A stretch of 64,000 bases of DNA from Thermoplasmatota archaeon. GTDB taxonomy: Archaea > Thermoplasmatota > JAKEGO01. Position numbers and translations under genes: made by a program. The stretch spans positions 96,001 to 160,000 of the forward strand of contig JANQNK010000004.1 in NCBI GenBank assembly GCA_028279595.1, given 5' to 3'. Positions 26,938-56,562 of the stretch are shown piece by piece; within the stretch, counting starts at the first letter, position 1; each line of letters starts with the position of its first letter. The notes beneath the pieces are model-generated. The model had not been told where the DNA came from. It made no database searches and saw only the letters and a list, made by a program, of their open reading frames with translations.

Positions 26938-27011
26938 GGGCCTATGGTCTAGCTGGTTATGACGTCGCCTTGACATGGCGGAGGTCTCCGGTTCGAATCC
27001 GGATAGGCCCA
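26938..27011 (+). tRNA. tRNA-Val(GAC)
   Basis: Acceptor GGGCCTA/TAGGCCC, anticodon arm TCGCC-TTGACAT-GGCGG, T-loop GGTTCGAATCC; CCA not encoded. Confidence 0.95.
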
Positions 27012-30035: not shown

Positions 30036-30219
30036 GCAGGGGTTAGGCCTCCGCAATATTTAAATGAATTCGGGACAAGAGGGTGTTGGGTACTCCAAGG
30101 CAGCGTGATGCGTCGCCGTGGATATGCTGAAAAAACCGCTGGAATGCGGCCCTGTCCGGACGCACTGGAAGGGAAAATCTAAATACCGCATGGATATTAG
30201 CAGGTTGCAGAGGGCTTGC

Positions 30220-31596: not shown

Positions 31597-31637
31597 GCCC
31601 GCAAACCTTTTAATCCCAGCGACCTTCTTATGGAGCG

Positions 31638-31733
31638 ATGAAGCCACGAACCCAGGACCTGATGAAGAAGGCGATCGCCATAGGCTTCGTGCTGTTGCTG
31701 CTGTTCTCCAGCTTCGTCGTCATGTTCAACTGA
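31638..31733 (+). CDS. 31-aa single-TM microprotein
   Basis: MKPRTQDLMKKAIAIGFVLLLLFSSFVVMFN*; GGAG RBS and an upstream GCAAACCTTTTAAT promoter; host-like codons; too short for the ORF track. Confidence 0.55.
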   Translation: MKPRTQDLMKKAIAIGFVLLLLFSSFVVMFN

Positions 31734-31939
31734 ACGACAAATGTTACCAACCCTTCAGTGGATACTTTCCTTTTCAAGGCACTATAGTTTTGTAATGTAA
31801 ATGTAGTGTTACGATTGATAATCCTTAAAAACCGCTGAAATGTGCGGAAAACCTGCGCAAAACCGCATATTTTCGCCGGAAACCCTTACCAAAATCAATA
31901 TATAGATTGCCAGATTTCGTTTCTGGACTAGGTGATGCA

Positions 31940-34900
31940 ATGACCAAACACATCGCAGTCGGAATTATAGCAGTTGTATCGCTAGCGATGCTCGTGTTCT
32001 GTACCCCAGTCTCCGCTGACTTCGGGGACGATATCCTCTTCGCGGAGATCGGAGGGGAGACCGGACCGGACATGATCGTCGCCGATGCGGAGGCAGGGAC
32101 CGGAGGAGAGGTATACATCCTCCTGGACCCTGACGAGGGTAATTTGACAGTGTCGGACGCCGACATCACATTGACTGGTGCGGCCGGCAGCATGTTCGGG
32201 TCCGGGGTCTCGTTCACCGACATGAACGACGACAACGTGACGGACCTGATAGTGGGAGCTCCGATGGCCGACAACGGGAACGGAACGGTCTATCTCTTCC
32301 TAGGACCTATAGCCAACGGCTCCTACCAGAATGCGAATATTACTCTTGACGCGCCCGAGGACACGCTGGGATTCGGTGCATCGGTCCAGGCCTCCGAGAT
32401 CAACGGGGATACGAGGCCCGACATCGCGATAGCGAGCATCTACCAGCCCGGTGGGAACGGTCTCGTGGGATCGTACTACGATGACATCGACCTGTCCGAA
32501 CTGATGTACGTCCAGGTCGACGACGATATCGATTTCAACTGGGGACTTGGCGCGCCGACGAACCTTAGCGCTGACACCTTCTCGATACGCTGGACCGGTC
32601 TCTTGTACTGCGAGGAGACCGGCGAGCACACCTTCTGGGTGGACGCCGACGATGCTATCCGCGTCTACATCGACGGCGACATGGTCATCGATGCGTGGGG
32701 TGGAGCGCCGAATGCATCGGAAGGTGTGTACCTCCTAGAGGGATATCACGACATCAAGGTCGAGTACGCCGATGATACGCTCGACGCGTACGTGAACCTC
32801 AATTGGACGACGGCATATTCTAGTGGTCCCGTCCCGACCGCGAACCTGGTCCCGTCCTTGTCCAGTCCGTTGTTCATAGTCAACGGAAAGACGAACCTCT
32901 CGAACCTGGAGGTCTCGGACATCCTCGTCGGAGAGGTGATGGGTAGCACATTCGGCAGCGAGATGATCGATTCCGACGAGGGATTGGTGGTGGGCTCCTG
33001 GTCGACCGGCCACGTCTTCATCCATGACGCGGACACGGCCGGAGACACCGAGACCTACTATGCCTATCCACAGTACAAGGGATCAGGGGATGAGACTGGT
33101 GAACCCGTCAGTGATCTGTGGGGCGATGACAATAACTATTACGAGGTCGAGAGAGGGAACAGCGAGGACGATCTGGAAATAGATACGTTCTACATCTACC
33201 AGCTACCGGCAATAGCCCGTCAATACGGGGAGATAGCTGGCGTCAACCTTTTGGTAAGGTGGTCCACCGACCAGTACTACATCTGGCAGGGCAACGGGGA
33301 TATGAACTATGTCCAGTTCGCGATAGAGGGGGATGCATATGAGGACCTCGTTCAGCCGACAAGGACCACAACTGAGGCCACGATCACTGGCAACCTCTAC
33401 AACAAGGGAGTAGATACGTACGGTGAGATCGAGGACCTCAACATACATTTCAACAATGGAGATGTCGGAAGCAGCGCGGATTCGGTCTACTTCGAGTTCA
33501 TCCTGGTGGAGATCGAGGTCTCTCTACCCGTGATGGACGAGTATGTGGACGGACCGGCCTCCTTCGGTATGTCCCTCGCCTCGTATGGCGATGACCTGTA
33601 CGTAGGGGCGCCCTATGCTGGTCCGATGACCAACGATCACGAGCTCGTGGGGATGTCCGGCGGAGGAAGCGCGTACTCCTTCGACATGACATCGTTGCCC
33701 GATGCTGCGGCGGAGGCGGGGGGCATCCTCTTCGGGACGCCCGGGTCCGAGTTCGGAAGCTCGTTGGCCACCGCCGACGGCATGTTGGCCATCGGCGCAC
33801 CTGAAGCATTCCTAGCCGACGACACCGGGGCCGTGTTCCTCGCCGAGGACATGGACCTCTCCGGATCCGGCCTTTGCCCGTACGGATCGGGCAACGCGGG
33901 GACAGTGGTCGCGATGAACGGCACATTGCTCGCCGCGGGAAATCCGGAGACCGACACCATCCATCTCATAGACATCACCGACGCCCCGACCATGGAGGTC
34001 GACAGGTCCGACTCGGTCCATGTGCCGACATCCGAGCAGTACACCATTGACATCAGCTCGACGGGCGTTCTCGCCATCACATCATATACGATCCCTGCCT
34101 GGGACTCCGATTTCAACGGAACTGACTGGATCAGGATGAGCGCCGGGGACCTCGACATGGATGTCGATATCAACACGGCGCCCGGACACGATACACCGGT
34201 AAGCATAGTCGGCAGGAGCCTTGACGGCCTGACATGCGGGCTCGACGTCATCTGGTTCAGGACGATGGAGGACAGCTTCTCCGTCGACGACCTTCACATC
34301 GTACGGGCGGACGGCAAGGCCTTCGCCTCGCCAGAGGGCGGCGTGGCCGGCGAGGTCAGCACGGTGAGGCCGTTCGTAAGGTACAGTGGGCCTGGTACGA
34401 CCGCTACAGACGTGGAGATCTCCACGGGAGGTTCCTACCTGAACCGGACAGTGCCACTGCCGTCGGACCTCATGGTCCTGGGCGACAACCTAACGGTCTC
34501 GAGCTACGGGACGGAGGCCTGGAGGGCCACCGACCAGATGGGCAGCTCGTACACGACAATCTCATTGACCGAGAGCCACTACTCCTGGAGGGTGATCGTC
34601 AACGGTTCATACCTACTCCAGAGGAGCGGATCGGTCGGCCTAAGGTTCTACACGCCGGTCGCGCTCACCTTCGATCAGGTCTCCATCGCGAGGGCGAGCG
34701 GGGATGATAGGAACATCTTCGACGAGACCCTCACGGAGGTCTCCTTCGGCGGGATGCCGTACTACCGTGCGGCAGCCGGAGAGGTCTTCGTATCGGATTG
34801 GACCGATTTCTCGATCGATCCGGACGGCATCTACGCCGTCTCCTTCCACACCCAGACTAACAGCACCAACGAGTTGACGTACTTCTACGGGTCTGGCATC

Positions 34901-37900
34901 GGAGAGACCTATTACAGGACTGGCGATTACAGGAGCGATCCAGACTGGTCCGACAACGCACCTTCGTCCTCGGCGTTCTCTGCCTATCTAATATCGGTGC
35001 AGAGCGAGACGCTCCCATCGGTATCCGGGATCGTATCGATTCCCTGGTACTCGCCCGTTGGCTGGAACTCCATCGGATGGACAGCGACCACTCCGGGCGG
35101 CAGCTCGGTGAGGGGGAGCATCAGGACCGCGGACGATGTGGGCGGTATGCCCGCGAACTGGTCTGCCTGGAGGGGTCCGTCTGGAGAGGACCCGTACCTC
35201 GCACCGTCAGCGATGACTGAAACGTCCTCCTGGATCCAGTACAGGGCCGAACTCGTCACCTCGGACGGGATGGCCCCGATCCTTCACAGTTTCTATCTTG
35301 GGACCACACAGGGCGACGCGGTCCAGGACGAATGGACCACCATCTGGGATCCCACATGGGGCACCGGGGATATTACGGGGATCGAGATGCAGTACCGGCT
35401 GGACAGCCTGTGGACGGGCTCGGTCGGATATCACAACATAACGGTCGGCCTGGGCGGTGAGACCGGTACGTTCATGGTCGAGATGGAATCGAACGCTCCC
35501 AACGGGGTGGTCACCATCTCCGGACGTACGGAGGACATCCAGGCGTACGCGCTAACGGGGGCTGCAATATCACTATCCAACCTTCGGACAGGGAGCATGT
35601 TGAACACGACCTCCGACGGATCGGGCGATTATTCGCTCGACCTCTCGAGCCTGCCTGGCGGCTACATCGACGGGGAGGCATTCATCATAAATGCGACGCA
35701 CATGGGGTCCTTCGGTACGGAGGCCTTCACTATCTACTCGGAGGACGGGGACAGGACGATCGATATCGCCCTAGAGCTCGAGGGGCTCGAGATCTTCGTC
35801 GATCTGCAGGACACACCGTATGGACAGAGGTTCATCAGGATGAACCGGGAGTCGGACGGTGCGGAGACCGATACGCCGGTTGAGGGAGAGGACACGCTCC
35901 TGTCCGCGAGGATCGGTAACAGGGGGCAGCTCGACGCCAAGAACGTCACCCTCGGATTCTTCGACAACGGGACGATCATCGGAGCGGAGCAGAAATTGAA
36001 CATAACCTCCGGAGATGTCGTCGAGATCCAGCAGTGGTGGACGCCAACGCCTGGATGGACGAACCTTTCAGTGAAGGCCTGGGGGATGTGGAACACGGAA
36101 CACTACTTCTGGGCGGACCTCTGGGACTCACCCATCGACTGGGGAGGCGCGGTGGACTTCACGACCGAGGCATACAACACCCCCGACGATCTCAACACAT
36201 GGTGGATCGACGGGGCGGACCCGAACAGCTCCATGGATGGCTGGGATTGGCTGCCCTTCGCATATGGAAGCACGGATGAGGATTACACCTGGCTCGGTGA
36301 ACCGAGTGGGGAGGCGGACTATGTTGAAGCGGGACAGATCGAGATAAGGATAGGCCGCTACAGCGGCTGGGGGAACTCGGGCATGGACGGGGAATCGTCC
36401 GGCGCCTTCGGAACGCAGTTCTACATAGAGCCGGACGCTTTCGCGGAATGGACCGGTGGAAAGGCGATACTCAGGTTCGTCTGGGACTGGGACCAGTGGT
36501 CCGGCACGGAGGAAAGATGCTCCCTGCTGGGACGGATCAGGACCAGGAACGACACCCTTTGGCTGGGGTCAGATGTGAGCACAGCCTACTATCCAAATTC
36601 CTCGGCGGCCATCTACGGAAAGAACGAGGACGAGAACACCAACCAGGACTTCTGGGACCAGAATTTCGTCCAGGACGTAACGTCGATCTTCAACCAGTCG
36701 GGTCATTACTATCTCGACCTAGGCGCATGGGTCGATGACACGTCCCGCAAGGGTGAAGGGGCGAGCGCATCCTTCGATGATATCTCCCTCGAGTTCGTCA
36801 GGGAGGTCACGGACCAGTTCCCCGACAACGACGAGGGGTGGATGAACGTCACGGTACTTCCCAATCAACCTGTGACGCCGTTCAATGCCAGCGTCCAGTT
36901 CATAGACAATTACAATCTCACGGGCCTCAGGGTCAACTTCACCTCGTACACGACCTCCGGATCATGGTCGCTGGACGACAGGGCCAATGGCACGGGACAT
37001 TACGATATCGGAATACCGGCGATCAACTATACCGAGGCTGATATGCTAAATATCGTCGTCGACGATGTCCTGGATGGAGTGCGTTTCCTGGGTTCGTACC
37101 AGACCGTACTCTATTCCTACGAGAGCCCGGCCTCGATCGTGATCCCGCTGTTCAGCTACGGGTTCAGCATGACGCCAGTGAGCACACATGCAGTTCTCTC
37201 ACCCGGTGATTCATTCAATTACTCATTGATGGTCATGAGCGACTCGAACGTCGGTGTTGACATCTATCTGAACGTTACCGGACTTCCGGCAGGATGGGAC
37301 GTGGTCCTGTCCGGATCGAACGTCAACAAGTCTGGAGGTCAGTACACCGTGTGGGTACCAGCTTATGGCTCGGTCACGGTAACCGTATTCCTTGAGCTCG
37401 ACGAGGACCCGCTGTCGTCATTGCCTGGCAACTACTCATGGTCGGTGGACGGCGGGGCGTGGTTCGGAAAGGACTCGATCACCATGCTGTCGGACGTCAT
37501 TCCCGTATACACCTTCGAGATCTCCGATATCGACGTGGAGACCATCGTTCCTGGAGGGACCGTCTTCTACAACGTCACCGTGCTCAGCACCGGCAACGTC
37601 GACAACATCATCGACTTCAACCTCACCGCTCCAGACAACTGGACGGTGCATATCCCGAACACCGCCCTGCCATTGGCAGCGAGCACGAGCGAGAACATCG
37701 TGTTCTACATCACTGCTCCCGATTGGCCCGGAAAGAACATGACCCAGGGAACGGACTACAACCTGACTCTCGACGGGGCGAGCCGGCATTCCGCCGACGC
37801 AGACATGAAGGCGGTCGATCTGGAGATCGGCAGCATTCACGATATCAGACTCGAAGGGGATGACATGGAATGCGAGCCGGGCATCCCGGTGTTCTATCCG

Positions 37901-40900
37901 ATCAACATCACGAACCACGGCAATGTCAGGGAGACGGTGACCTTGATGCTCGAGTGGAATGCCACGATCGGGAATGTCTCTACGCCGACGCCTATCGTCC
38001 TGGACCCGGGCGAGTGGTACATACTGGACATCGTTTTCACACCGTCGCCCGACTACAACGTCTCTACCGCCGACAGGGTCCTCGAGATAAACGCCAGCTA
38101 CGGCAGTGCCCTGCTCAACGCGAGGTTCACCGTGGAGCGGGTATACGACCTTCACTTCATCGTACCGGACACCATAGATACCGTCATCGGACAGGAGACC
38201 GAGTTCGAGGTCACGATCGAGAACCGTGGGAACGGTGATGCCACATACAAGATCGGGGTTTCGAACGGGATCCCGAGCACACCCTTCATGGAGCTCGTGA
38301 CATGGGACCCGAGGACATTGGGTGTCAAGATGACGCCGGACACGGAGGGGTGGTCCAACGTCACGCTGTCGCTCATCCTCGACTCAGAGACCATCGGCCA
38401 GATCGCTGTTCCGATCAAGGCCAGCAGAGGATACATCGACTTCGTCATGGGTGATAGCGAGGTTGTCATCAACGACGTGGACGCCTATGACATCTCCCCG
38501 TCCACCATGGACATGGCCTACATCTCCGCAGGGAATGCCTACTATCTCCCGGCCAACGGCACAGCGGTCGATCTCGGTGCAACGAATGCGACCGACATCG
38601 CGATCACGAACCTCGGATCAGCCTTCATCGCGCTGGCGAAGCCTGACGCGGTGATGGTACACGAGGTCTCGGGGAACGCTCCCTACAACATCGTTGAGAC
38701 CTGGAACATGTCGGTCGGCGGTACCATGGTCGAGATGGACTCCAGCACCTACACGACGGACGGGAACGCGGTCTACCTCGTTTGGATAGCGCCTGGAGGT
38801 GTGAAGTTCCGTTCACTCAGCAACTGGCAGAGCAAGGACTGGAACACGGTTGCGAACATCTACTCGGGAACTGCGACCGCCATCGACCTGGTCGCGTCCG
38901 GTTCCCGGATAAATATTGCATGGGGCGCCTCGAACGGGGTGCACTACGAGCGGGTATCATATCTCGGTTCCGAGGACATCGCCCCCGTGAGGGTCGCCAA
39001 CGTCGCTCCTCCGACCTCGGTCGCCCTATCGAACCCGATGGACCTGCACCTCGCGTGGGCGTCCAACGGCGTGGTCTCCTATGCGACCTACAACGGGTCC
39101 TGGTCGTCGGCGACCAGGCTGCGCGAGGGTTTCGAGGTCGCCGGAGCCGTGGCGGGGGACATCACGTCGTTCGCTATATCCGAGGACTTCGTCTCCGTCG
39201 TACACCCGCCGCAGGGATTCTGGCAGGCATCCGAGAGGGGGGACCCATCGTCCCCGACCATCGTCTGGGACGACGGAATGTACGTCTATTACCTGGATGG
39301 TGACCTCCACGTCAACGAGATCGGGCTTCCGTTCCTGATGGACTGGGGCGAGGAAGCGGAGATCGATGTGACCCTGTACAACCGCGGATCCCGCAACATG
39401 GATGTTTCGCCCACCGCGTCGGTCCACGAGGATTGGACTGCGGACATCGGTTCGGACCCCGTCCCCAAGGGAGGAACGGGGATGATAACGCTCGAGGTGA
39501 AGGCCCCTTACACGATATCATCGGAGGACTCCACGGATGTGGTGATCTCGCTTGACGGGATCGAGATGGTGAGGATACCGGCGCGGGCGTTGGGCGGAGA
39601 GGTCCACGAGGTGTCCGTCGAGGGAGACCTTGCGGCTACGCCGGGTGAGACCCTAGAGACCACCCTGACCTTCACCAACACCGGGAATTCGCATGAGAAC
39701 ATCACGATCGAGCTCATCGTCCCCGAAGGCTGGGAGATGGTCCTCGACTCTGATTCGCTATCGATACCGGCCGGCGGGACGGGTGCCGTGGGAGTGACCG
39801 TAACAGCACCGATCGACACGATCGCACAGGACGACCTGTCCGTCAACCTCACGTTCGCCGGGACGACCACCGTCGTGATGGCGCCAGTGGCCGTCGCCCC
39901 GATGGCCCCACATATCGGGAGCGTCAACGTCACCACCGGTCTCTCGGGAGACATGATATGGATGAATGCGACGGTGTTCAGGGCGCTCTCGGTCGAATGG
40001 TTCCTGCCCAACGGCACGGAACTGTCCGGTACCGAGGTGGTGGGAGCGTTCGACATCCCTGGAACTGCCGTCGTACAGCTCGTCGCCACCAATGAGGCGG
40101 GTGTTGAGTCGACGTTCGTCAACGTCACCATCGGGAACAGACTGCCCACAGGCGTGGACTTCGCGACGGGCAAACTGAAGGCCGGAGAGAGCATCATGCT
40201 CGAGGCCAACGGTACCGACCCCGAGGGAACGCTCCTCACTTTCACCTGGACGATCGAGGGTGAGGAATACGTTGGAACCTCCGTCGATTACCGCTTCGAG
40301 GAAAAGGGAACCTACAAGGTTCTCTTGACAGCGGTGGACGAGCACGGTGGTGCCACGGAGGTCTCGCACAACGTAGTCGTCACCGGTGGTGAGGAGGACG
40401 GCGTTGCCGGGATGGACATGATCGACCTGATGCTGATCATCTCGCTGATACTCCTCATCCTGATCCTCCTGCTCCTCCTGGTGAAGAAACGCAAGGCGCC
40501 GGTCGCCGAGAAGGCCCTCAAGGACGAGAGCATGTTCGAGATGGTCCACCGCCTGTGGCCCCAGTACGTCGACACCGTTCGAGACCTCGATCCGAAGGTG
40601 GCCGACATACTGGAGCAGGCGAAGCTGTTGAACTACGACGAGACGACGAACGTGCTAACACTGGGTCTCGCAGAGGGTGAGGACTTCAAGAAGGCTGTGA
40701 TGCCCGAGGTACTCGAGGTGATGGAGCGCGGATTCCACGACCTCCACGGGACCAGGGTATTCCTGTTCATCGAGAGCGGGATGGGCGCGGCTCCGAAGGA
40801 GGAAAGCGGTCCGACGCTGACCCTCGTCAAGGACGAGCCACCTAAGAAGGGTGGCGCGGCAGAGCCCGGGGCAGTGAAGAAGGGCCCCCGGAAGAGGAAG

Positions 40901-43900
40901 GCCAAGAGACCCCAGGCGAAGAATGGACCGCAGCAGGAAGGGGGCGCAAAGGACGCACCGAAGAAGAAGGTCGCAAGGCCGAAGAAGAAGGGGCCGAAGG
41001 GTCCGTTCTGCCTTGTCCTGATGGTACTGATGATAGGGCTGTTGGGTGTTGCCTCCGGCGAGCAGCTCACGCTCGCCGACGTGGACCTTGACGGAGCGGA
41101 CGACGTTGCCGTAGGATTCCCCGATGATGACTCCATTGGTTACGCGACTGGACCCCTGTCACGGGGAGAAGTGGCACTGACCACCGTCGAGGGCCAGGCA
41201 GGCTCGGGATACGGTTACGCCCTCGCATCGACGAACGGGACACTGGCCGTCATGGCGCATTCCAATGCATCCACGGTCGTCTACCTCTACGATGCGTTCG
41301 GCACCTGGGACAGCTTCGATTCGAACATATCGACGATCTCGCCCTCCGGAGTGAACTCGCTCGCTGTCGGGGACTACGATGGCGATGACGAGGTCGACAT
41401 CGCGGTCGCTTCATCGGCAGGCACCGTTCGGGTGTACTTCGGCCCCGAGTACTCATCGACCATGACGATCGATGTTCCCGCGTCCGGGGACATCGCCCTG
41501 GTGCTCGAGGACATCGACGGCTCCGGCGAGGACGAGCTGGTGGTCGGAGTACCGTCCATCGGCATCGTCCTGATATTCGAAGGAGGGGTCGATTACCAGA
41601 CCCAGTTGATCGCGCCCGACCTGGAGGACATGGAGTCCGGCATCAACCTGACATGGGAGGACGACGGCCTCATGCTCGCGAGACTGGGCGAGATCGAGAA
41701 CGGAGACGGCTCTGACGGCATGGTTGGTTGGTGGACCACGGACAACAGGGACGGGAACGAGAACGGTTTGATCCGTCTCCTCGACGGAGACATTGGAAGC
41801 TGGAAGGTCAGCCCAGACAGCGGAGCACCGACCGTCGGTTTCGGCTCGAACCGGGACACAATGGTCCAGGACGGGGAGAACAAGGCATATTCCGGCACAC
41901 TTTGCAGTCCATCGTTCGAGATACCCGACAACGTGGAATACCTCCACCTGTGGTACCGTTACGTCCTGGCCAGCTTCGATAGATGGGAGGGCGTCTATGT
42001 CGATATCTACAACGATGTGAACAACAACAAGCTCCTCAGTGTACATCAGAGGAGGTTCGGTGACAACGGTAACTGGAGAACCTACGAGGAGTCGAAGATC
42101 ATCGAGGTGTCGAGCTTCCAGGGATACACTGTCTACTTCGGCGGAGAACTGGACGGCGACGACGGACGTGATTCCGCCCTCATAACCATGGACGACATCT
42201 ACTTCTCCGACGAAGAGGGCAACATAGCCCGCAAGGACACGGGACACTACGTTTCCTATCCCCAGACGGTGGGATTCAACATAACGTCGGTGGTTCCGAT
42301 ATGGGACGCTGACCTGAACGGCGAGGAGATAGAGATCAGGGCGAGGGCGTCATCGAGCGTTCCCTGGACCTCGATCGAACCGCTCGAGAACTCGGTATTG
42401 AACGAGCTGTCCGTCGCCGGGACCGCCTTCGAGTACAACATCACATTGAGGTCGGATAACATCGGCATCAGCCCGGTACTTAGGAGCCTGACCTTCGAGC
42501 TCATGTCCGCTCCGGGAGCGGTCATCAAGGGCAAGGCCAACACCGGCTTCGGGTCCACGCTGAAGGTGTCGGTGGACCATGACACGCTAGTCGTTGGTTC
42601 CCCGACCTACTTCACGAAGGGATCGGCGTTCGGTTACGACCTTCCCTCCATCGGGGACAGTCTCACGCTCGCAAACACGACGTTCACCGTGGAAACGAAC
42701 GAACTCGATGCCGGTCTTGGTACGGGAGTCGCCCTGGCTGACCTGACCGGGGACGGTATGGCAGAGGTCCTGGTCTCGGCGCCAATGGCGAGGTTTAAGG
42801 CCGACGACGGTGGAGCGGTATACGGGTTCTCGCAGGCATCCGGAGACCTTACGATCAAGGAGTCGGAGGTCCAGTATGCCGGCGACGGTGGACTCGGGAC
42901 AGCGATGGCATCGTGCTGGGACAGGATCGCCGTCCTCGAGGGCGAGACCGTGAGCATCATCGAGGGATGGCACGCCCTCCGTTTCATCACGACGGACGCG
43001 AACTCCTTCCCCGACAATTCGATCTCGATACCGATCTCCATAGAGAACCTGTTCGACGCCGAACAGATCGACCTCGGATTGATACTTCCAGGCAACTGGA
43101 CCGGCCATTTCGAGGACGGTGGCACGGTCACATCGGTTTCTGTAGGCGCTGGAACGACCAAGAACCTGACCCTGGTGGTCGATATCCCCGAGACGGCGTC
43201 GGACGACGACTTCGAGGTCTCACTTATCGGGATCGGTGCGGACGGGATCGCTTACAACGTCTCCACGCTCACTGTGGACGTGTTCATCCCGGACATCTAT
43301 CCGAACTATCTCTTCATGCTCAGGGGCGACGGATGGAACGCCACCGACAATTCACGTCACCTGATAGCGGGAGAGGTCGCCAACATAACGGTGGAGTTCT
43401 ACACGATCAGCGATTCGCCGCTTCCCGAGATAACGATCACTTTCTTCGAGGAGTACAATACAGGTTCGTCGTGGGACTATTCGGTCATCGACAACTTCAC
43501 GGTACAGCCGGTCCCGGGGGAGAGCACATGGCTCAGCACCGACTGGACACCCTTCACGGACGGCGAGTTCTACATCGGCGCGATGATCGACTCGCTCGAG
43601 ACCGTGCTTGAGACTGACGAGGACAATGAGATCAAGTACAAGAGGGACATACTCGACGACATTCCTGAAAGCGTTTACACCATCAGCGGAAAGGTGTTCG
43701 ACACCGACAACACGACAGTGAACGCATCGATAACCGTCTCCGGACCTAGGGGATACATGGACTCGTTCACCTCGAGCGATTCCGGAGATTACTCCACCGT
43801 GATCGACAACAGCAGCTATTTCGAGGGCGAGGTGTTCTGGATCAACGCGACCCTTTCCGGACCTCCCGGTTCTGCATCGGAGTCGATCGCACTCTACTCA

Positions 43901-46900
43901 GAGGATGTAGGTTCCGAGATCGATCTCGACCTCCACTTCGATGGGGTCGACGTCGCGCTGGAAGAATTCGACGACGCCACAGGGACGGTCGATATCTCGA
44001 TCCTGAGGTACGGTGACGGGATGGCCGATGACACTGTGGTGGCGGGACTCCCGGTCACCCTGGAGATCGAGGTAAAGAACAGGGGAACCGACGATGTGTC
44101 AGTGGACGCGTCCTTCTGGACGAACACGTCCATCGGTTCCGTGGTGAGGACGGTGGACGCGCTGTCCGCGGACAGGATTAATATCTCGTGGACCCCGGCC
44201 TCGGCGGGAACATACGACCTATACGTCCAGCTCAATGCGAGCGGTGACATATATTCCGCCAATGACATGGGTTCCAGACTGTCGGTGGTATGCATTCCGA
44301 GGACGCCTTCGATGGACATCTGGATCAACGGAACGGTATTTGACACGGAGGGAGACCCACTCTCCGGCGTGCAGGTGCCTGTCGAGAACCTTGGTTCGTC
44401 ATGGATGAACAGTTCGATAATCACGAACGGCACTGGCTGGTTCTCGACCCTGATCAACATGTCATCATATCTCGAGGGAGACAGGATCGACATCAACGTG
44501 TCGCACAGCGGGAACTGGGGGAACACGACGATCCACCTCTTCTCGTACGACGGCGACCACGACGTGACCCTCCTGCTGAGGAGGTACGGGGTCGGACTCA
44601 CGGGCGACGCTTCCGCGAAGGTAATGCCGTGGGACATGGCGATGTATCAGCTCAACCTCTCGAGCGGTGCGAACTTCAACGACACGTTCACCGTAAGGGC
44701 ATCCGGGGTCCCGTCCGGCTGGGACCACTACTTCCTCTACGGCAATGGTTCCATGGTGAGTCCGTTCTCTTGGGGCCTTGATCCCGATGGTTCGATCGAG
44801 CTTTACCTGGTGATGTGGACAGAGACCGATCCATGGCTGGTCCTTCCGGACACGTACGCTGTTACGGTGAGGGCTTTCATGGACTCTCATCCTACCACAT
44901 CGGTCGACCTCATGGTCTCGCTGGAGGTCCTTCCGACATACAACTTCACACTGACGGGCGTGAACACCAGCTGGTCGGTGGCGCCCAATGGAACGGTCAT
45001 GTTCGAGTATGACCTGACGAACTGGGCGAACGGCAACGTCTCCGTCCTCGTGACGGCGTTCTCTGACGAGCCCGATGTCGGGCTGGTCTACCCGAGCTCG
45101 ATCTCGCTCGGTTACGGCGATACGGAGACCCTTTTCATAGAGGCCACTGCCCCACCTCTGTCGTCGGATATCGAGGCGGGATCCGAGATAGAGATCACCC
45201 TCAAGGTGGCAGCGCTCAACGATTCCAAGATGGACAGATGGGCGACGCCGGTCATGACCGTCGAGGGCATCGTCGCCCTTGAGTGGTCCGGGACCATGGC
45301 CGAGGAGGCGGTCCCGGGCGATGAGGCGGTCTACGAACTGGTCCTTACGAACGTAGGCAATGCCGACTTCTCAGGGAACGTCTCGATCGGGGGTGCCGAT
45401 TTCTATACATGGGTGTACCCGGACGGTGTGGACCTCGGACCTGGAGATTCGGAGACGTTCACGATATTCGCCGAGGCTGACTTCGAGGATATAGGCGGCG
45501 ACAGCCTGCCGGCGGGAACGATGCTCGACTTCAACGTCACGGTCGGCAACGTTACCGCGGACCTTACGCTCACGTCGCTATCGAAGCACTCGATCACGAT
45601 ATCGAGTGACGCGACCGACACCTGGGCGCACCACACGGACGCCCAGACGTTCGAGGTCGTCATCAGGAACAAGGGCAACGTTCCGGAGGACGTCATCATG
45701 TACATGGCCGGAGAGAACACCTCATGGGTGTCCCTCGCGATGGACGACTTCACGCTCGGAATCAACGAGGTGCTCAAGTTCAACCTGACGATCGACCCCG
45801 ATGGTCCGGGGGTTTGCGACATTGCGATCTACGGATCGAGCGATGACGCGGTGTCGAACTCTCTCAATGTGTTCGTGACCTTCGACGATCGGACCGATCA
45901 GGTGCTGGTATATTCACCAGCCTTCATGATAACCGACGATGCGGAGGAGTTCGACTCCTGCGGCGACGCCGTGGTATGGAGGAGCTCGGGCGGGATCCAC
46001 GTCGATGACGGCACCGGGGCGATATCCCTCGGGGATGGATCTCTGCCGACCGTCGGAACCTACGGCGACCTCGTTGGAGTATCGTGGTTCGAGGATGGAT
46101 CTGTGATGTTCGCAACGTCGGCCGGGGATTACGCGACCCAGGAGGTCTCCGACCTGACGCCCGTCCGTTTGGAGGTATCGCCAGGCCCGGTAAGGGCCGT
46201 GGCCATCGACACGGGTTCGGCTATCAAGGTGCTGACGTTCAGCGGCGGGAACTGGACCCAGGCCCACTATCCGCACGGCGACTTCGCCCTGATACCCCAT
46301 GGTGATGAGCTCTATCTACTCCACATCAATTCAACGAACGCCTCCATCAGAACACTCCCGGACGGCGATGTGGTCGAGGAGCTAGACCTCGACGAGGTCC
46401 ACCAGGTCCTGGTCGATGACGCCATCGGGATCCTGGGGGAATACGAGGGCGCGGGCGTTCTCATCTGGGGCGAGCCCGGGGACTGGACAACGACCAAGGG
46501 GCCGGTCTGGGGAGAGGCCCTGATCTCGACCGGACAGTGTCCGATCGCAGTCGGATACACTACTGGGGAGATGGTCCTCAAGAGCGACTGCGGACGCTTC
46601 ACCATGCCGATGAGGCCAACCTGGCCCCTGGCGATGATGGACGGCGGTTATCTGCCCCCGGTACCGACATCAGACCTTGGCGGCGGCGATGCGGTCTATT
46701 ACATCTCCGGTGACTCGCTCTACATGATGCCGCTCGACATGATCGTACGACCCGACGAGACCGGTGAGACCTTCGAGGTGTTCGTGTATGGCAACGCAGA
46801 GGGGTTGACCCCCATCATCGACGGCATGGCGAGCATCGTCTCCTCGGATGTCAACACTACGACTGGTATCGTCTCGGTGACGATCGTATCGGACCCGGTC

Positions 46901-48583
46901 GAGGCGGGTGAATCATATCCGCTCTCCATCTCGCTCATGGATGGCAGCGGATCCACCAATGGGCTCGGGTTCATAATGATCCCCAGGAGCTACGTCCAGA
47001 TAGACGTCCTGTCGGTCGAAGGGGACGTCATGCCTGGTGACACTTCATCCGTGGAGTTCGAGGTCGTCAACAACGGGACCGGGACGGAGAGCATGCTGAT
47101 CAAGTTCACACTACCGGACGGATGGACCGCCGACCATGACGTGTCCATCAGCCTGGATGCCGGAGAGACGGACACCTTCACGGTCGACCTCACACTACTC
47201 ACCGAGGAGGACGGTTCGAACATCGTGCTCTATCTCAACGGGTCCGAGGACAGGAGTTTCGACTTCACCCTCGGGACCCTGACACCGATGCCGTCGGCCG
47301 TCATCCTGTCACTCGACCAGGCGGTCTCGTTCAGGAACGTCAACTTCATCGCGGAGGAGGGGTACGGCGAGAACTGGACCTGGACGTTCGGCGACGGCAG
47401 CGTCGTGGAGGGCATGGAGATAAGTCACGCCTTCGGAAGACCTGGCGAGTACATGGTCACACTGACGGTCACGAACTCCGTCGGAGTGGACCGGGCCTAC
47501 AAGAACGTCACGATTACCAACCTCGTTCCCGAGGTGAGGATAGGGCCGGTCTCGGATGCCGAGTCAGGCTCGGTGGTCCAGATAACGGCGGCGGGAACCG
47601 TGGACAGAGACGGGACCATCGTCTCGTACACCTGGACGTTCAGCGACGGCGGTTCGGCCTCCGGAGCGGTGGTCAGCCACAAGTTCTCGACGACGGGGAT
47701 CAATGTGATCACCCTCAACGTCACCGACGAGCTCGGCGGCACGAACTGGACCACCTACAGTTTCAATGTGACATCCAAGGACGATGGTTCGGCGCTCGGA
47801 GACCTGGCAACGAAGATCGGTCTCGTCGTCGGGATCCTCATAATACTGATACTGATAATACTCGTTCTGATCGGGAAGATCGGACTGAAGAGGAAGGCCG
47901 CACCGGTGAAGCAGGAGCCCGTAGAGAAGAAGCCGCCTGCGAAGAAGCCCCGTGCGGGCGAGGGTCCACCGAAGAAGAAGGCGTCCCGTGGACCGCCCGT
48001 TGCCGGAGCTCCGGTCAAGCGGAAGGTCAGGAAGCCGGTTCCCGAGAAGGGGACGCCCCAGGATGAGGAGGCCTTCGCCGAGGTCCCGCCACCGGAAGAG
48101 GCCCCTCCGGCGGATGAAGTGCCCGAGACACCTCCGGAGGACGAGAAGCCATCCGCCTTCGTTCCAATGGGAAAGAAGGAGAAACCGGTCCTTCCGACAG
48201 GGCCAGCCGAGGAGGAGACCCCGGCCCCGGTGGAAGAAAGGGCGAGCGCGTTCACCACGAAGGACGCCCGGAAGAAACCCGTTCTCCCGACGGCGGTGGA
48301 TGAGCCGCCAGCACCTGAGGAGGCTCCGACACCGCCTCCCGCGGAGGAGCCCCCAGCGTGGGAGCCGCCCACGCCAGCTCCTGAGCCACCTGTGATGGAG
48401 CCGGAACCTGCTCCGGTCGCACCGGCACCGATCGTGGAGGAGCCACCAGTCGAAGAGACCACCCCGCCCATGGACGAACCTCCTGAGGAGGAGAAGGTGG
48501 ACGAGGGCGAGATCTCACAGCAGCTCGACGACCTCGAAGCCCTTATGAAGAAGCTCGACGGTTACACCGAGGAAGAGGAGTGA
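31940..48583 (+). CDS. Giant (~5,550 aa) surface protein made of two tandem FG-GAP/lectin/CARDB/NEW3/PKD ectodomains, each ending in a TM helix
   Basis: GGTGA RBS plus signal peptide; FG-GAP repeats; PA14 domain (~32450-32860); repeated N.GN Ig-like domains; PKD motifs (WTFGDG); TM at ~40427-40483; signal-like segment at ~40960-41059; TM at ~47816-47875; Pro/Glu tail. Confidence 0.85.
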   Translation: MTKHIAVGIIAVVSLAMLVFCTPVSADFGDDILFAEIGGETGPDMIVADAEAGTGGEVYILLDPDEGNLTVSDADITLTGAAGSMFGSGVSFTDMNDDNVTDLIVGAPMADNGNGTVYLFLGPIANGSYQNANITLDAPEDTLGFGASVQASEINGDTRPDIAIASIYQPGGNGLVGSYYDDIDLSELMYVQVDDDIDFNWGLGAPTNLSADTFSIRWTGLLYCEETGEHTFWVDADDAIRVYIDGDMVIDAWGGAPNASEGVYLLEGYHDIKVEYADDTLDAYVNLNWTTAYSSGPVPTANLVPSLSSPLFIVNGKTNLSNLEVSDILVGEVMGSTFGSEMIDSDEGLVVGSWSTGHVFIHDADTAGDTETYYAYPQYKGSGDETGEPVSDLWGDDNNYYEVERGNSEDDLEIDTFYIYQLPAIARQYGEIAGVNLLVRWSTDQYYIWQGNGDMNYVQFAIEGDAYEDLVQPTRTTTEATITGNLYNKGVDTYGEIEDLNIHFNNGDVGSSADSVYFEFILVEIEVSLPVMDEYVDGPASFGMSLASYGDDLYVGAPYAGPMTNDHELVGMSGGGSAYSFDMTSLPDAAAEAGGILFGTPGSEFGSSLATADGMLAIGAPEAFLADDTGAVFLAEDMDLSGSGLCPYGSGNAGTVVAMNGTLLAAGNPETDTIHLIDITDAPTMEVDRSDSVHVPTSEQYTIDISSTGVLAITSYTIPAWDSDFNGTDWIRMSAGDLDMDVDINTAPGHDTPVSIVGRSLDGLTCGLDVIWFRTMEDSFSVDDLHIVRADGKAFASPEGGVAGEVSTVRPFVRYSGPGTTATDVEISTGGSYLNRTVPLPSDLMVLGDNLTVSSYGTEAWRATDQMGSSYTTISLTESHYSWRVIVNGSYLLQRSGSVGLRFYTPVALTFDQVSIARASGDDRNIFDETLTEVSFGGMPYYRAAAGEVFVSDWTDFSIDPDGIYAVSFHTQTNSTNELTYFYGSGIGETYYRTGDYRSDPDWSDNAPSSSAFSAYLISVQSETLPSVSGIVSIPWYSPVGWNSIGWTATTPGGSSVRGSIRTADDVGGMPANWSAWRGPSGEDPYLAPSAMTETSSWIQYRAELVTSDGMAPILHSFYLGTTQGDAVQDEWTTIWDPTWGTGDITGIEMQYRLDSLWTGSVGYHNITVGLGGETGTFMVEMESNAPNGVVTISGRTEDIQAYALTGAAISLSNLRTGSMLNTTSDGSGDYSLDLSSLPGGYIDGEAFIINATHMGSFGTEAFTIYSEDGDRTIDIALELEGLEIFVDLQDTPYGQRFIRMNRESDGAETDTPVEGEDTLLSARIGNRGQLDAKNVTLGFFDNGTIIGAEQKLNITSGDVVEIQQWWTPTPGWTNLSVKAWGMWNTEHYFWADLWDSPIDWGGAVDFTTEAYNTPDDLNTWWIDGADPNSSMDGWDWLPFAYGSTDEDYTWLGEPSGEADYVEAGQIEIRIGRYSGWGNSGMDGESSGAFGTQFYIEPDAFAEWTGGKAILRFVWDWDQWSGTEERCSLLGRIRTRNDTLWLGSDVSTAYYPNSSAAIYGKNEDENTNQDFWDQNFVQDVTSIFNQSGHYYLDLGAWVDDTSRKGEGASASFDDISLEFVREVTDQFPDNDEGWMNVTVLPNQPVTPFNASVQFIDNYNLTGLRVNFTSYTTSGSWSLDDRANGTGHYDIGIPAINYTEADMLNIVVDDVLDGVRFLGSYQTVLYSYESPASIVIPLFSYGFSMTPVSTHAVLSPGDSFNYSLMVMSDSNVGVDIYLNVTGLPAGWDVVLSGSNVNKSGGQYTVWVPAYGSVTVTVFLELDEDPLSSLPGNYSWSVDGGAWFGKDSITMLSDVIPVYTFEISDIDVETIVPGGTVFYNVTVLSTGNVDNIIDFNLTAPDNWTVHIPNTALPLAASTSENIVFYITAPDWPGKNMTQGTDYNLTLDGASRHSADADMKAVDLEIGSIHDIRLEGDDMECEPGIPVFYPINITNHGNVRETVTLMLEWNATIGNVSTPTPIVLDPGEWYILDIVFTPSPDYNVSTADRVLEINASYGSALLNARFTVERVYDLHFIVPDTIDTVIGQETEFEVTIENRGNGDATYKIGVSNGIPSTPFMELVTWDPRTLGVKMTPDTEGWSNVTLSLILDSETIGQIAVPIKASRGYIDFVMGDSEVVINDVDAYDISPSTMDMAYISAGNAYYLPANGTAVDLGATNATDIAITNLGSAFIALAKPDAVMVHEVSGNAPYNIVETWNMSVGGTMVEMDSSTYTTDGNAVYLVWIAPGGVKFRSLSNWQSKDWNTVANIYSGTATAIDLVASGSRINIAWGASNGVHYERVSYLGSEDIAPVRVANVAPPTSVALSNPMDLHLAWASNGVVSYATYNGSWSSATRLREGFEVAGAVAGDITSFAISEDFVSVVHPPQGFWQASERGDPSSPTIVWDDGMYVYYLDGDLHVNEIGLPFLMDWGEEAEIDVTLYNRGSRNMDVSPTASVHEDWTADIGSDPVPKGGTGMITLEVKAPYTISSEDSTDVVISLDGIEMVRIPARALGGEVHEVSVEGDLAATPGETLETTLTFTNTGNSHENITIELIVPEGWEMVLDSDSLSIPAGGTGAVGVTVTAPIDTIAQDDLSVNLTFAGTTTVVMAPVAVAPMAPHIGSVNVTTGLSGDMIWMNATVFRALSVEWFLPNGTELSGTEVVGAFDIPGTAVVQLVATNEAGVESTFVNVTIGNRLPTGVDFATGKLKAGESIMLEANGTDPEGTLLTFTWTIEGEEYVGTSVDYRFEEKGTYKVLLTAVDEHGGATEVSHNVVVTGGEEDGVAGMDMIDLMLIISLILLILILLLLLVKKRKAPVAEKALKDESMFEMVHRLWPQYVDTVRDLDPKVADILEQAKLLNYDETTNVLTLGLAEGEDFKKAVMPEVLEVMERGFHDLHGTRVFLFIESGMGAAPKEESGPTLTLVKDEPPKKGGAAEPGAVKKGPRKRKAKRPQAKNGPQQEGGAKDAPKKKVARPKKKGPKGPFCLVLMVLMIGLLGVASGEQLTLADVDLDGADDVAVGFPDDDSIGYATGPLSRGEVALTTVEGQAGSGYGYALASTNGTLAVMAHSNASTVVYLYDAFGTWDSFDSNISTISPSGVNSLAVGDYDGDDEVDIAVASSAGTVRVYFGPEYSSTMTIDVPASGDIALVLEDIDGSGEDELVVGVPSIGIVLIFEGGVDYQTQLIAPDLEDMESGINLTWEDDGLMLARLGEIENGDGSDGMVGWWTTDNRDGNENGLIRLLDGDIGSWKVSPDSGAPTVGFGSNRDTMVQDGENKAYSGTLCSPSFEIPDNVEYLHLWYRYVLASFDRWEGVYVDIYNDVNNNKLLSVHQRRFGDNGNWRTYEESKIIEVSSFQGYTVYFGGELDGDDGRDSALITMDDIYFSDEEGNIARKDTGHYVSYPQTVGFNITSVVPIWDADLNGEEIEIRARASSSVPWTSIEPLENSVLNELSVAGTAFEYNITLRSDNIGISPVLRSLTFELMSAPGAVIKGKANTGFGSTLKVSVDHDTLVVGSPTYFTKGSAFGYDLPSIGDSLTLANTTFTVETNELDAGLGTGVALADLTGDGMAEVLVSAPMARFKADDGGAVYGFSQASGDLTIKESEVQYAGDGGLGTAMASCWDRIAVLEGETVSIIEGWHALRFITTDANSFPDNSISIPISIENLFDAEQIDLGLILPGNWTGHFEDGGTVTSVSVGAGTTKNLTLVVDIPETASDDDFEVSLIGIGADGIAYNVSTLTVDVFIPDIYPNYLFMLRGDGWNATDNSRHLIAGEVANITVEFYTISDSPLPEITITFFEEYNTGSSWDYSVIDNFTVQPVPGESTWLSTDWTPFTDGEFYIGAMIDSLETVLETDEDNEIKYKRDILDDIPESVYTISGKVFDTDNTTVNASITVSGPRGYMDSFTSSDSGDYSTVIDNSSYFEGEVFWINATLSGPPGSASESIALYSEDVGSEIDLDLHFDGVDVALEEFDDATGTVDISILRYGDGMADDTVVAGLPVTLEIEVKNRGTDDVSVDASFWTNTSIGSVVRTVDALSADRINISWTPASAGTYDLYVQLNASGDIYSANDMGSRLSVVCIPRTPSMDIWINGTVFDTEGDPLSGVQVPVENLGSSWMNSSIITNGTGWFSTLINMSSYLEGDRIDINVSHSGNWGNTTIHLFSYDGDHDVTLLLRRYGVGLTGDASAKVMPWDMAMYQLNLSSGANFNDTFTVRASGVPSGWDHYFLYGNGSMVSPFSWGLDPDGSIELYLVMWTETDPWLVLPDTYAVTVRAFMDSHPTTSVDLMVSLEVLPTYNFTLTGVNTSWSVAPNGTVMFEYDLTNWANGNVSVLVTAFSDEPDVGLVYPSSISLGYGDTETLFIEATAPPLSSDIEAGSEIEITLKVAALNDSKMDRWATPVMTVEGIVALEWSGTMAEEAVPGDEAVYELVLTNVGNADFSGNVSIGGADFYTWVYPDGVDLGPGDSETFTIFAEADFEDIGGDSLPAGTMLDFNVTVGNVTADLTLTSLSKHSITISSDATDTWAHHTDAQTFEVVIRNKGNVPEDVIMYMAGENTSWVSLAMDDFTLGINEVLKFNLTIDPDGPGVCDIAIYGSSDDAVSNSLNVFVTFDDRTDQVLVYSPAFMITDDAEEFDSCGDAVVWRSSGGIHVDDGTGAISLGDGSLPTVGTYGDLVGVSWFEDGSVMFATSAGDYATQEVSDLTPVRLEVSPGPVRAVAIDTGSAIKVLTFSGGNWTQAHYPHGDFALIPHGDELYLLHINSTNASIRTLPDGDVVEELDLDEVHQVLVDDAIGILGEYEGAGVLIWGEPGDWTTTKGPVWGEALISTGQCPIAVGYTTGEMVLKSDCGRFTMPMRPTWPLAMMDGGYLPPVPTSDLGGGDAVYYISGDSLYMMPLDMIVRPDETGETFEVFVYGNAEGLTPIIDGMASIVSSDVNTTTGIVSVTIVSDPVEAGESYPLSISLMDGSGSTNGLGFIMIPRSYVQIDVLSVEGDVMPGDTSSVEFEVVNNGTGTESMLIKFTLPDGWTADHDVSISLDAGETDTFTVDLTLLTEEDGSNIVLYLNGSEDRSFDFTLGTLTPMPSAVILSLDQAVSFRNVNFIAEEGYGENWTWTFGDGSVVEGMEISHAFGRPGEYMVTLTVTNSVGVDRAYKNVTITNLVPEVRIGPVSDAESGSVVQITAAGTVDRDGTIVSYTWTFSDGGSASGAVVSHKFSTTGINVITLNVTDELGGTNWTTYSFNVTSKDDGSALGDLATKIGLVVGILIILILIILVLIGKIGLKRKAAPVKQEPVEKKPPAKKPRAGEGPPKKKASRGPPVAGAPVKRKVRKPVPEKGTPQDEEAFAEVPPPEEAPPADEVPETPPEDEKPSAFVPMGKKEKPVLPTGPAEEETPAPVEERASAFTTKDARKKPVLPTAVDEPPAPEEAPTPPPAEEPPAWEPPTPAPEPPVMEPEPAPVAPAPIVEEPPVEETTPPMDEPPEEEKVDEGEISQQLDDLEALMKKLDGYTEEEE

Positions 48584-49920
48584 ACTTGAGGCCGGAAACC
48601 GCCTTCGCGGGCAGGCTGCTCATGGACGGAGAGTTGGTCAGCGGAGCGGTCGAGGTCACCGACGGGCGGATCACGGACATCGTGAAGACCTCCGACGCCG
48701 AGGACGTCCTCGACTTCGGGGACGCGCTCGTCCTACCGGGCGGCGTCGACATGCACGTCCATTTCAGGGACCCGGGTTACACACACAAGGAGGATTTCCT
48801 TACAGGGAGTTCGGCAGCCGTCTTTGGCGGAACTACAACTGTGGTTGACATGCCGAACACCATACCGTTCATCGCGGACAGGACGACCTTCGTCGAGAAG
48901 GCGGGAGCGATGGCCGACTCCTGGGTCGACTTCGGGCTCGCGTCCGCGTTGGCAGCGGGAAGGGACCCGGTGGCGATGGCGGACCTGGCGGTATGCTACA
49001 AGCTCTTCATGGCCTCCACGACAGGTGTCGAGGGCGGCGACTACGAGGAATCCTTGCACAGGGCGGTGGGCGTCGCGAAGCCCATTGTGGTGCACGCTGA
49101 AGACCCTGGACAGTTCAGGGCTTCCCCCGGGGTCGACCTGGAGGACCATTCGCGTGCGCGGCCTTTCATCGCCGAGGTCGAGGGGATACGGCGGATCTAC
49201 TCGCTGGCTTCCCATCAGATACCGGCTCCGAGCGTGCATCCCGCCCAGGGAGAGAACCATCCCAACTTCTGGATCCACATCGCGCATCTCACGTCCGCGG
49301 AGGGAGCCGACGTCGTGAGAGGGTTGAGACCGGCGGGTTTCACCGCCGAGGTCACGCCCCACCATCTGTTCCTCGATTCGTCCATGGAGCTCGGGACTTT
49401 GGGAAAGGTCAACCCCCCTCTGAGGACGGTCAACGACCGATCCGCCCTCTGGAGGGCTCTCGGTGATGGAACTATCGATGCGGTCGCATCCGATCACGCG
49501 CCACATCTCCCCGAGGAGAAGGACACGGATTTCGCCGATGCCCCGGCGGGTATCCCCGGGGTGGAGACATTGTATCCTCTGATGCTCCATTCCGTCAAAA
49601 GGGACATGCTCCCATTGAACCGTGTCGTCGATGCCGTCGCCACCAGACCGGCAGAGATCCTCGGGATCCCGAAGGGAAAGGTCGAGGTCGGTTACGATGC
49701 GGACCTCGCGATCTTCGATTCCAGCAACGTCACCGAGATCAAGGGGGAGGATCTCCATTCAAGGTGCGGATGGACGCCGTTCGATGGCATGGAGGCGATA
49801 TTCCCGGTCGCGACCGTGGTCTGCGGCAGGATGCACCAACGCGACGGAGCACTGTTCGGGGATCCGGAGGGCAAGATGCTGATACAGCCGCAGCATAGCC
49901 GGACCATGAACGGAGGATAG
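48580..49920 (+). CDS. pyrC: Dihydroorotase (amidohydrolase superfamily)
   Basis: DMHVHFRDPG, DMPNT, KLFM, HAED, HIAH, EVTPHHL, KVNPPLR, SDHAPH, GWTPFDG; GTG start overlaps the giant ORF's TGA. Confidence 0.85.
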   Translation: MNLRPETAFAGRLLMDGELVSGAVEVTDGRITDIVKTSDAEDVLDFGDALVLPGGVDMHVHFRDPGYTHKEDFLTGSSAAVFGGTTTVVDMPNTIPFIADRTTFVEKAGAMADSWVDFGLASALAAGRDPVAMADLAVCYKLFMASTTGVEGGDYEESLHRAVGVAKPIVVHAEDPGQFRASPGVDLEDHSRARPFIAEVEGIRRIYSLASHQIPAPSVHPAQGENHPNFWIHIAHLTSAEGADVVRGLRPAGFTAEVTPHHLFLDSSMELGTLGKVNPPLRTVNDRSALWRALGDGTIDAVASDHAPHLPEEKDTDFADAPAGIPGVETLYPLMLHSVKRDMLPLNRVVDAVATRPAEILGIPKGKVEVGYDADLAIFDSSNVTEIKGEDLHSRCGWTPFDGMEAIFPVATVVCGRMHQRDGALFGDPEGKMLIQPQHSRTMNGG

Positions 49921-50139: not shown

Positions 50140-50213
50140 GGGCCTGTAGCTCAGCACGGCAGAGCGATCGGCTCTTAACCGATCGGTCGGGGGTTCGAAT
50201 CCCTCCAGGCCCG
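50140..50213 (+). tRNA. tRNA-Lys(CTT)
   Basis: Acceptor GGGCCTG/CAGGCCC, anticodon arm ATCGG-CTCTTAA-CCGAT, GGTTCGAATCC; CCA not encoded. Confidence 0.95.
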
Positions 50214-50519: not shown

Positions 50520-50694
50520 CCGATGCCGATCCAATTCGTCGTATGACGATTTGTTAACACAAACTGCGTAAATATTATGATTATATGCAGAAAAATTAAC
50601 TTTTAAGTCGAAATAAAAATCATTACAGTAGTAAGTAAGGTATTAATACAACGTCCATCGCTTTCTCTGAATAGGACACGTGCAGGTGAACAGC

Positions 50695-56448: not shown

Positions 56449-56562
56449 GATGCCGTTCCAGGCTCGGTCATCGAAACCTGAATGGGTCACGCAGCCCAAC
56501 GTGGGCCAGCATCCTTAAATGTAGCGAGTACGTAACGTGGTAGCGATAGGGGGACTGGTAGA

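Follow-up and report, generated by a model that had tools for sequence, protein, structure and literature searches.

Does the 5,547-residue open frame on the forward strand at 31940-48583 of the window (the whole 64,000-nucleotide stretch analysed) encode one very large surface protein, or a precursor from which two are cut? A preliminary description of the sequence had read it as a polyprotein of two membrane-anchored adhesins joined through an internal signal peptide and forming an integrin-like pair or, if kept uncut, as one double-headed protein. Our analysis indicates that the frame probably arose when an operon was fused, and that signal peptidase I probably divides the product again into two anchored surface proteins of FG-GAP/Ig/PKD type in a 1:1 ratio, with the cleavage predicted from the internal segment and its counterparts in relatives.

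One open frame with two ectodomains

The frame runs to a single stop at its end, and a GGTGA motif resembling a ribosome-binding site lies 4 nt 5' of its start. Its two halves are referred to as A and B. The features are listed below, with a slash marking each predicted cut.

31940..48583, + strand: whole fused ORF (Logan contig identical; 39% full-length identity to fused orthologue)
31940..32017, + strand: N-terminal signal peptide of A, aa 1-26, predicted cut VSA/D (hydropathy; matrix score 20.7 bits, rank 2)
32018..40426, + strand: ectodomain A, aa 27-2829 (Pfam; 59 sequons)
40427..40495, + strand: TM1, aa 2830-2848, with basic stop-transfer sequence KKRK, C-terminal side predicted inside (hydropathy, charge and sequons)
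40520..40780, + strand: predicted cytoplasmic folded domain of DANL type, aa 2861-2947 (structure model, conservation)
40781..40981, + strand: Lys/Pro/Gly-rich, putatively cytoplasmic linker, remnant of A's own C-terminal tail (comparison with relatives)
40982..41059, + strand: putative internal signal with basic n-region, h-region of about 15 aa and A-S-G c-region (hydropathy, matrix, alignment)
41059/41060, + strand: predicted signal peptidase I cut, aa 3040/3041 (matrix and register)
41060..47815, + strand: ectodomain B, aa 3041-5292 (Pfam; structure model)
47816..47872, + strand: TM2, aa 5293-5311, then basic residues (hydropathy, charge)
47873..48580, + strand: Pro/Glu/Lys-rich, putatively cytoplasmic tail of B (comparison of B C-termini)

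The strongest Kyte-Doolittle peaks lie at residues 5-23, 2830-2848 (nt 40427; 3.66), 3021-3039 (nt 41000; 2.28), and 5293-5311 (nt 47816; 3.72); the only further peak of at least 1.5 is a weak one (1.78) within a stretch of beta-strands. A loop of 172 aa separates TM1 from the internal segment; it has 21% Lys plus Arg and no N-x-S/T sequons, and ectodomains A and B have about 3.5% Lys plus Arg each and 59 and 50 sequons, respectively. TM1 is flanked by acidic residues before and basic residues after it, the internal segment by net charges of +8 before and -5 after, and TM2 by basic residues after it. Under the positive-inside rule, this charge distribution and the sequon pattern suggest that the chain runs out-in-out-in. 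The topology put forward in the preliminary description thus agrees with the four hydrophobic segments, their flanking charges, and the distribution of sequons.

Assembly support and genomic setting

The host genome is a MAG of 2.3 Mb, 86% complete, known from one sample (a coral metagenome), and its class is represented by three genomes in the collection. As far as can be told, the host is a rare coral-associated archaeon of an uncultured class. Positions 31000-49000 are covered without a single difference by a Logan contig from the probable source run, at a depth of about 23; it is a separate assembly of the same sample, so that it tests the assembly only, at contig level. The frame is unbroken across the junction in this contig as well, and the view of one uninterrupted giant frame with two ectodomains is upheld by the single stop, this exact match, and a fused orthologue in a second genus. 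The sequence words of the locus were next to absent from two other runs of the same study, and no RNA dataset containing the locus sequence was listed. An assembly chimera, or a recently lost stop codon without meaning, might be entertained for a MAG with one known sample whose locus has separate-gene relatives. We nevertheless regard this as barely credible, given that the separate assembly of the source run yields the identical stretch in one contig and that the locus of the other genus, 60% diverged, has its fusion at this very position.

Among the ORFs of the host genome, an internal junction of an anchor followed by a signal was found only here. Pattern scans of genome and metagenome contigs gave zero further junctions, and protein searches returned the same few relatives and no others. 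No terminator was found in the junction region; a single sigma-70-like match there is irrelevant, as the host is an archaeon.

Downstream, an amidohydrolase gene (48580-49920) begins with a GTG that overlaps the stop of the giant ORF (GTGA) and may be translationally coupled to it. Just upstream (28692-31596) lie a GT2 glycosyltransferase gene on the minus strand and a gene for a 492-aa zinc-ribbon protein. The window also contains two tRNA genes (26938-27011 and 50140-50213), the second of which is followed at 50680-61626 by lower-GC DNA with two beta-helix surface-protein genes and a gene for a HerA-like ATPase. The surface repertoire of the host genome is very large, with at least 72 signal-plus-anchor proteins of over 700 aa, several large surface proteins ending in PEF/PGF-like sorting motifs, and giant ORFs of 13,752 codons (e.g., C18:210352-251610) and 8,224 codons (e.g., C1:16641-41315).

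The two halves are paralogous

Half A matches the Pfam families FG-GAP, PA14, CarboxypepD_reg, CARDB, NPCBM-associated, and PKD. It is laid out as an FG-GAP head with a PA14 insert (aa 173-290), a CarboxypepD_reg/CARDB/NPCBM-type Ig stack, and a PKD domain (aa 2744-2813). Half B matches FG-GAP, CARDB, CarboxypepD_reg, and two PKDs, arranged as an FG-GAP propeller that starts from the predicted cut, an inserted domain, an Ig stack, and the two PKD domains. Smith-Waterman alignment of A with B scored 463, compared to 77 ± 7 for shuffled sequences. The best match of A in the genome is B (E 5e-38; next best 4e-9), with identities of 22-28% in blocks. All of the landmark motifs that had been quoted for both halves are present. 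The halves had been described as colinear paralogs; the paralogy is borne out, and the colinearity is partial only, with a PA14 insert in A and a repeated Ig/CarboxypepD module in B. Based on their FG-GAP, PA14, and PKD domains, A and B would most likely act in adhesion or glycan binding.

When the first 647 residues of B were modelled, the first propeller strand began at residue 3 after the cut site. The model has a mean pLDDT of 51 and is confident only in two propeller parts; it matches beta-propellers including integrin alpha, the latter to E 1e-9. At the other end of B, an amphipathic-helix-like motif from aa 5524 (48509-48580) is shared by all three B proteins whose C-terminus is known, while the remainder of the tail is about 26% conserved. 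The motif likely binds some partner in the cytoplasm. When the loop domain and the conserved C-terminal helix of B were modelled as a complex, the score was 0.00 with the helix poorly folded, a result that speaks neither for nor against an interaction.

A folded domain is predicted in the cytoplasmic loop

The loop had been described as a cytoplasmic segment of about 170 aa. Its length holds and its inside location is supported, and it appears to be more than low-complexity sequence, since residues 2861-2947 are predicted to form a folded domain (model pLDDT 92). Among the segments compared, this domain is conserved best, at 59% from one genus to the other; the ectodomains are about 40% and the linker before the cut site about 30% conserved.

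Structure comparison matched the model to DnaA domain I (4tps_D) with Z 11.3 and an rmsd of 2.4 A over 82 aa at 12% identity; the next match had Z 7.9. Models of DnaX C-termini gave TM scores of 0.81-0.87, and DciA and the tau C-terminal domain were matched too. There was a weak sequence match to the C-terminus of PRK14965 (E 0.012), and Foldseek returned zero matches for the domain at E 0.001 or better. DnaA domain I, the DnaX/tau C-terminal domain, and DciA make up the DANL group (PMC9825169), and the modelled loop domain has the KH-II-like alpha/beta fold of this group. On the strength of the fold, we infer that the domain may bind protein. It was found in all three genomes of the host class and in no other of the 401 phylum genomes searched, nor was it found in plasmids. 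As the domain occurs in fused, split, and stand-alone forms of A alike, it was part of the ancestral tail of A rather than a product of the fusion.

Fused, split, and stand-alone relatives

Relatives of the locus occur as both fused and separate genes. A genome from another genus of the same family (G001) has a fused orthologue, a single frame of 5,551 codons that aligns over its whole length at 39% identity and shares the four segments and the junction. Its neighbours match those of the host locus, with the glycosyltransferase and zinc-ribbon genes upstream and the amidohydrolase gene downstream. A genome of the same order (G002) has split A-type and B-type genes, in which the TGA of A overlaps the ATG of B (ATGA) and a GGAGGTGA site lies upstream. 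Its split A shares the loop domain and also has a TM and a basic tail, and its split B has an ordinary N-terminal signal peptide in register with the internal signal of the fused protein. To the question raised earlier of whether orthologues are fused or split at this junction, the answer is therefore both; the possibility that all relatives are separate genes does not hold.

Stand-alone A genes with no B behind them were found as a second copy in G002 and as JGI protein P0002. In both proteins the C-terminal Lys-rich stretch is the aligned counterpart of the internal signal's n-region, which identifies that n-region as the old tail end of A and the h- and c-regions as the old signal of B. The fused, split, and stand-alone forms of the family all break at this seam, and the split state in the outgroups suggests that fusion is derived. 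Judging from these comparisons, the giant ORF is best understood as an ancestral operon of two genes that became fused long ago and has been conserved in that state.

The stand-alone G002 copy is 51% identical to host A, compared to 41% for the A half of G001. In trees of four to seven rows with a long outgroup branch and inferred contig joins, grouping the two fused As as a clade is rejected over the N-terminal half (AU p 0.0014) and is acceptable over the next 900 aa (p 0.18). Such a pattern may reflect a subsequent fission at this seam, a transfer that truncated the gene there, or two separate fusions.

Within the host phylum, large surface genes often occur as coupled tandem pairs. Another class has distantly related tandem pairs of overlapping, separate genes, with products of about 2,950 and 2,380 aa and beta-helix-like N-terminal extensions; these are not strict orthologues and are without the loop domain. 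In genome G012, an overlapping pair of distantly related giant surface genes is present in three copies, on contigs C23, C33, and C21 (L056, L057, and L058), and the first gene of two of the three pairs ends in a cytoplasmic double zinc-ribbon, not a DANL domain.

A further close relative of B, HID73435.1, carries a Met of its own and lies 118 nt from the end of its contig, with the frame open to that end; we therefore count it neither as split nor as fused. At L025:1-120 (GCA_012962145.1, DTYA01000008.1), upstream of a B gene, another frame resembles a membrane anchor plus basic residues and stays open for 101 codons. This frame crosses C and G homopolymer runs, and at this contig end it could equally reflect a frameshift error, an overlap, or a short-loop fusion.

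The internal segment scores as a cleavable signal

We scored potential cut sites with a matrix built from 25 N-terminal signals of the host genome, the cut sites of which were deduced from a shared mature start. In this training set, the usual -1 residue is Gly and the usual +1 residue Glu or Ala. The internal ASG/E site scored 23.8 bits and ranked first of all positions in the protein, ahead of the protein's own N-terminal signal (20.7). None of 52 held-out N-terminal signals reached 23.8 (median 11.4), and all of 72 C-terminal anchors scored below it (median 6.4; maximum 18.6). In the fused protein of G001, the top three positions correspond to the homologous site at 11.5-13.6 bits, of which the best (12.9-13.6) are within the upper range of uncleaved anchors.

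When four B proteins were aligned on their first FG-GAP strand, small residues at -3 and -1 fell in register (host ASG/E; G001 ATS/E; split G002 TSA/G; HID73435.1 TGA/H), a pattern that occurs by chance at about 12% of positions and that for fused proteins is drawn from two genomes. The reading of the segment as a Lys-rich n-region and an h-region followed by A-S-G/E is thus strengthened by the rank-1 score and by the register with the N-terminal signal of split B. The alternative that the segment would resemble neither a signal nor a TM does not hold, as its score is that of a signal. The internal h-core is short (13-15 aa) and ends in Pro in G001.

Class III signals, which are processed by prepilin peptidase, have a basic residue and Gly before a hydrophobic +1 residue ahead of the helix, and lipoprotein signals have a lipobox Cys after it. 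Both readings of the internal segment were rejected, as the required pattern is absent in both genera: the Gly next to the basic residues has Pro behind it, the host has no Cys beyond the c-region, and in G001 the Cys is preceded by Pro.

A motif search for the enzyme found one candidate signal peptidase I, at G000:C9:31862-32875 (-) (L045), with a Ser-Met motif. It matches TIGR02228 with E 1.5e-7 and 31.5 bits against a cut-off of 51.85 and is thus divergent. Archaeal signal peptidase I is nearer to the eukaryotic than to the bacterial enzyme (PMC6098224), and the eukaryotic peptidase cuts an internal helix in astrotactin (10.1101/493858). A literature search, in which coverage of subscription journals was limited, found no archaeal internal-signal polyprotein, nor any case of the archaeal signal peptidase I cutting an internal signal.

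Proposed processing and alternatives

We propose that two tandem paralogous genes for type-I surface proteins, ancestrally a translationally coupled operon, were fused in frame, such that the basic tail end of A came to serve as the n-region for the old h- and c-regions of B. The chain would be inserted co-translationally by Sec, with signal 1 exporting ectodomain A. TM1 would then halt transfer, leaving the DANL-fold domain and the linker in the cytoplasm, after which export would resume at the internal signal and TM2 would hold B in the membrane. A Sec11-type signal peptidase I would cut at 26/27 and 3040/3041. The predicted products are separately anchored and made 1:1, namely A of about 3,010 aa, which would keep the used signal helix as its C-terminal end, and B of about 2,500 aa; in both, the FG-GAP head would be free and sit atop an Ig/PKD stalk.

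The old signal might instead persist as an uncleaved N-in/C-out anchor, which would give a three-pass, double-headed protein with the B head tied to the membrane and a B loop of 2,250 aa. The KD19 values of 2.28 and 2.07 are within the range of the genome's weaker anchors, the uncharged run is 20-24 aa, and in other systems a long n-region can impede the cleavage of a signal. Yet the c-region matches the cleaved signals of the genome better than any anchor does, and the h-region is lengthened in neither genus. An uncut helix would also pin the B head to the membrane, given that the first strand begins at residue 3 after the site, whereas the homologous head follows an ordinary N-terminal signal in A and in split B and is thus normally a free tip. 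We consider this arrangement a serious contender, though rather unlikely. It is very unlikely, in turn, that most B is translated from a separate start inside the frame, with the fusion a tolerated read-through of a locus that still works as two genes. Potential starts do exist, i.e., an in-frame ATG at aa 2948 and a GTG at aa 2979 in the loop, as well as a GTG in G001, 26 codons ahead of the site and closely preceded by AGGAGG, and the close relative HID73435.1 has a Met of its own. However, the host has no start codon 14-61 codons before the cut, the normal length of a signal, and none of its candidates has a clear ribosome-binding site; the candidate positions differ between the two genera, the spacing in G001 is only 3 nt, and A would still run on into B.

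Compatible with cleavage by signal peptidase is the further proposal that A and B, once cut, stay bound to each other in an integrin-like heterodimer that is obligate and 1:1, and that the fusion was kept for this reason. The two are translationally coupled when split and otherwise fused, which suggests selection for equal amounts, and both heads have FG-GAP repeats related to integrin alpha (E 1e-9). On the other hand, neither half has a beta-integrin or vWA Pfam match at E 0.01, A stands alone without a downstream B in G002 and in the JGI contig, where it ends at the position of the internal n-region, and coupled pairs of large surface genes are a common arrangement in the phylum. Such a heterodimer seems unlikely to us. 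Of the preliminary description's integrin-like polyprotein, the polyprotein draws support from the signal, the topology, and the fused orthologue; the pairing does not, in view of two alpha-like FG-GAP heads, zero vWA matches, and stand-alone A.

Significance and comparison with known systems

If the fused protein is cut as predicted, archaeal signal peptidase I would process internal signals, like its eukaryotic relative, and fusion of an operon into a polyprotein would be an available route for archaeal surface proteins. Annotation tools that consider only the N-terminus would call the giant ORF a single protein of 5.5 kaa. The family forms a small natural series for fusion and fission at one seam, with a reach limited to three genomes of one rare class. 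A bolder proposal is that archaea use a virus-style polyprotein to make an obligate 1:1 pair of giant FG-GAP adhesins, in which the DnaA-domain-I-like module contacts an intracellular partner as an analogue of integrin signalling; we hold this to be quite improbable.

Each half resembles integrin alpha in its FG-GAP repeats, propeller-type head with an inserted domain, Ig-like stalk, single TM, and cytoplasmic tail. It differs in having no beta chain and a far longer stalk with PKD/CARDB domains, and FG-GAP repeats are widespread in prokaryotic surface proteins. The likeness to DANL domains is one of fold, and the domain is here found on the cytoplasmic tail of an archaeal surface protein.

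Tetrabrachion of Staphylothermus is an archaeal surface precursor that is reportedly cut into two chains, not at an internal signal. The bunyavirus Gn-Gc precursor has the same layout as the archaeal giant ORF, i.e., signal, ectodomain, TM, cytoplasmic tail, internal signal, ectodomain, and TM, and signal peptidase releases from it two type-I proteins in a 1:1 ratio. The archaeal case differs from it in being cellular and about five times larger, with paralogous halves and with split and stand-alone relatives, and its cleavage and pairing are only predicted. Vertebrate astrotactin-1 and astrotactin-2 consist of an N-terminal ectodomain, TM1, a cytoplasmic loop, and a second helix that is cut by the ER signal peptidase (10.1101/493858). 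They are cellular and adhesion-related and share the order of segments, a likeness for which we do not claim homology. The C-terminal part of astrotactin is without an anchor of its own and is disulfide-linked, in contrast to archaeal B with its TM2. In Bradyrhizobium japonicum, FbcH, the cytochrome b-c1 precursor, is reportedly a fusion of operon genes with an internal second signal and is cut into two membrane proteins. FbcH differs in that it belongs to a bacterial respiratory complex of small proteins, with an obligate partnership and a bacterial-type peptidase; as a prokaryotic in-frame operon fusion that keeps an internal signal, it is nevertheless the nearest mechanistic precedent for the giant ORF.
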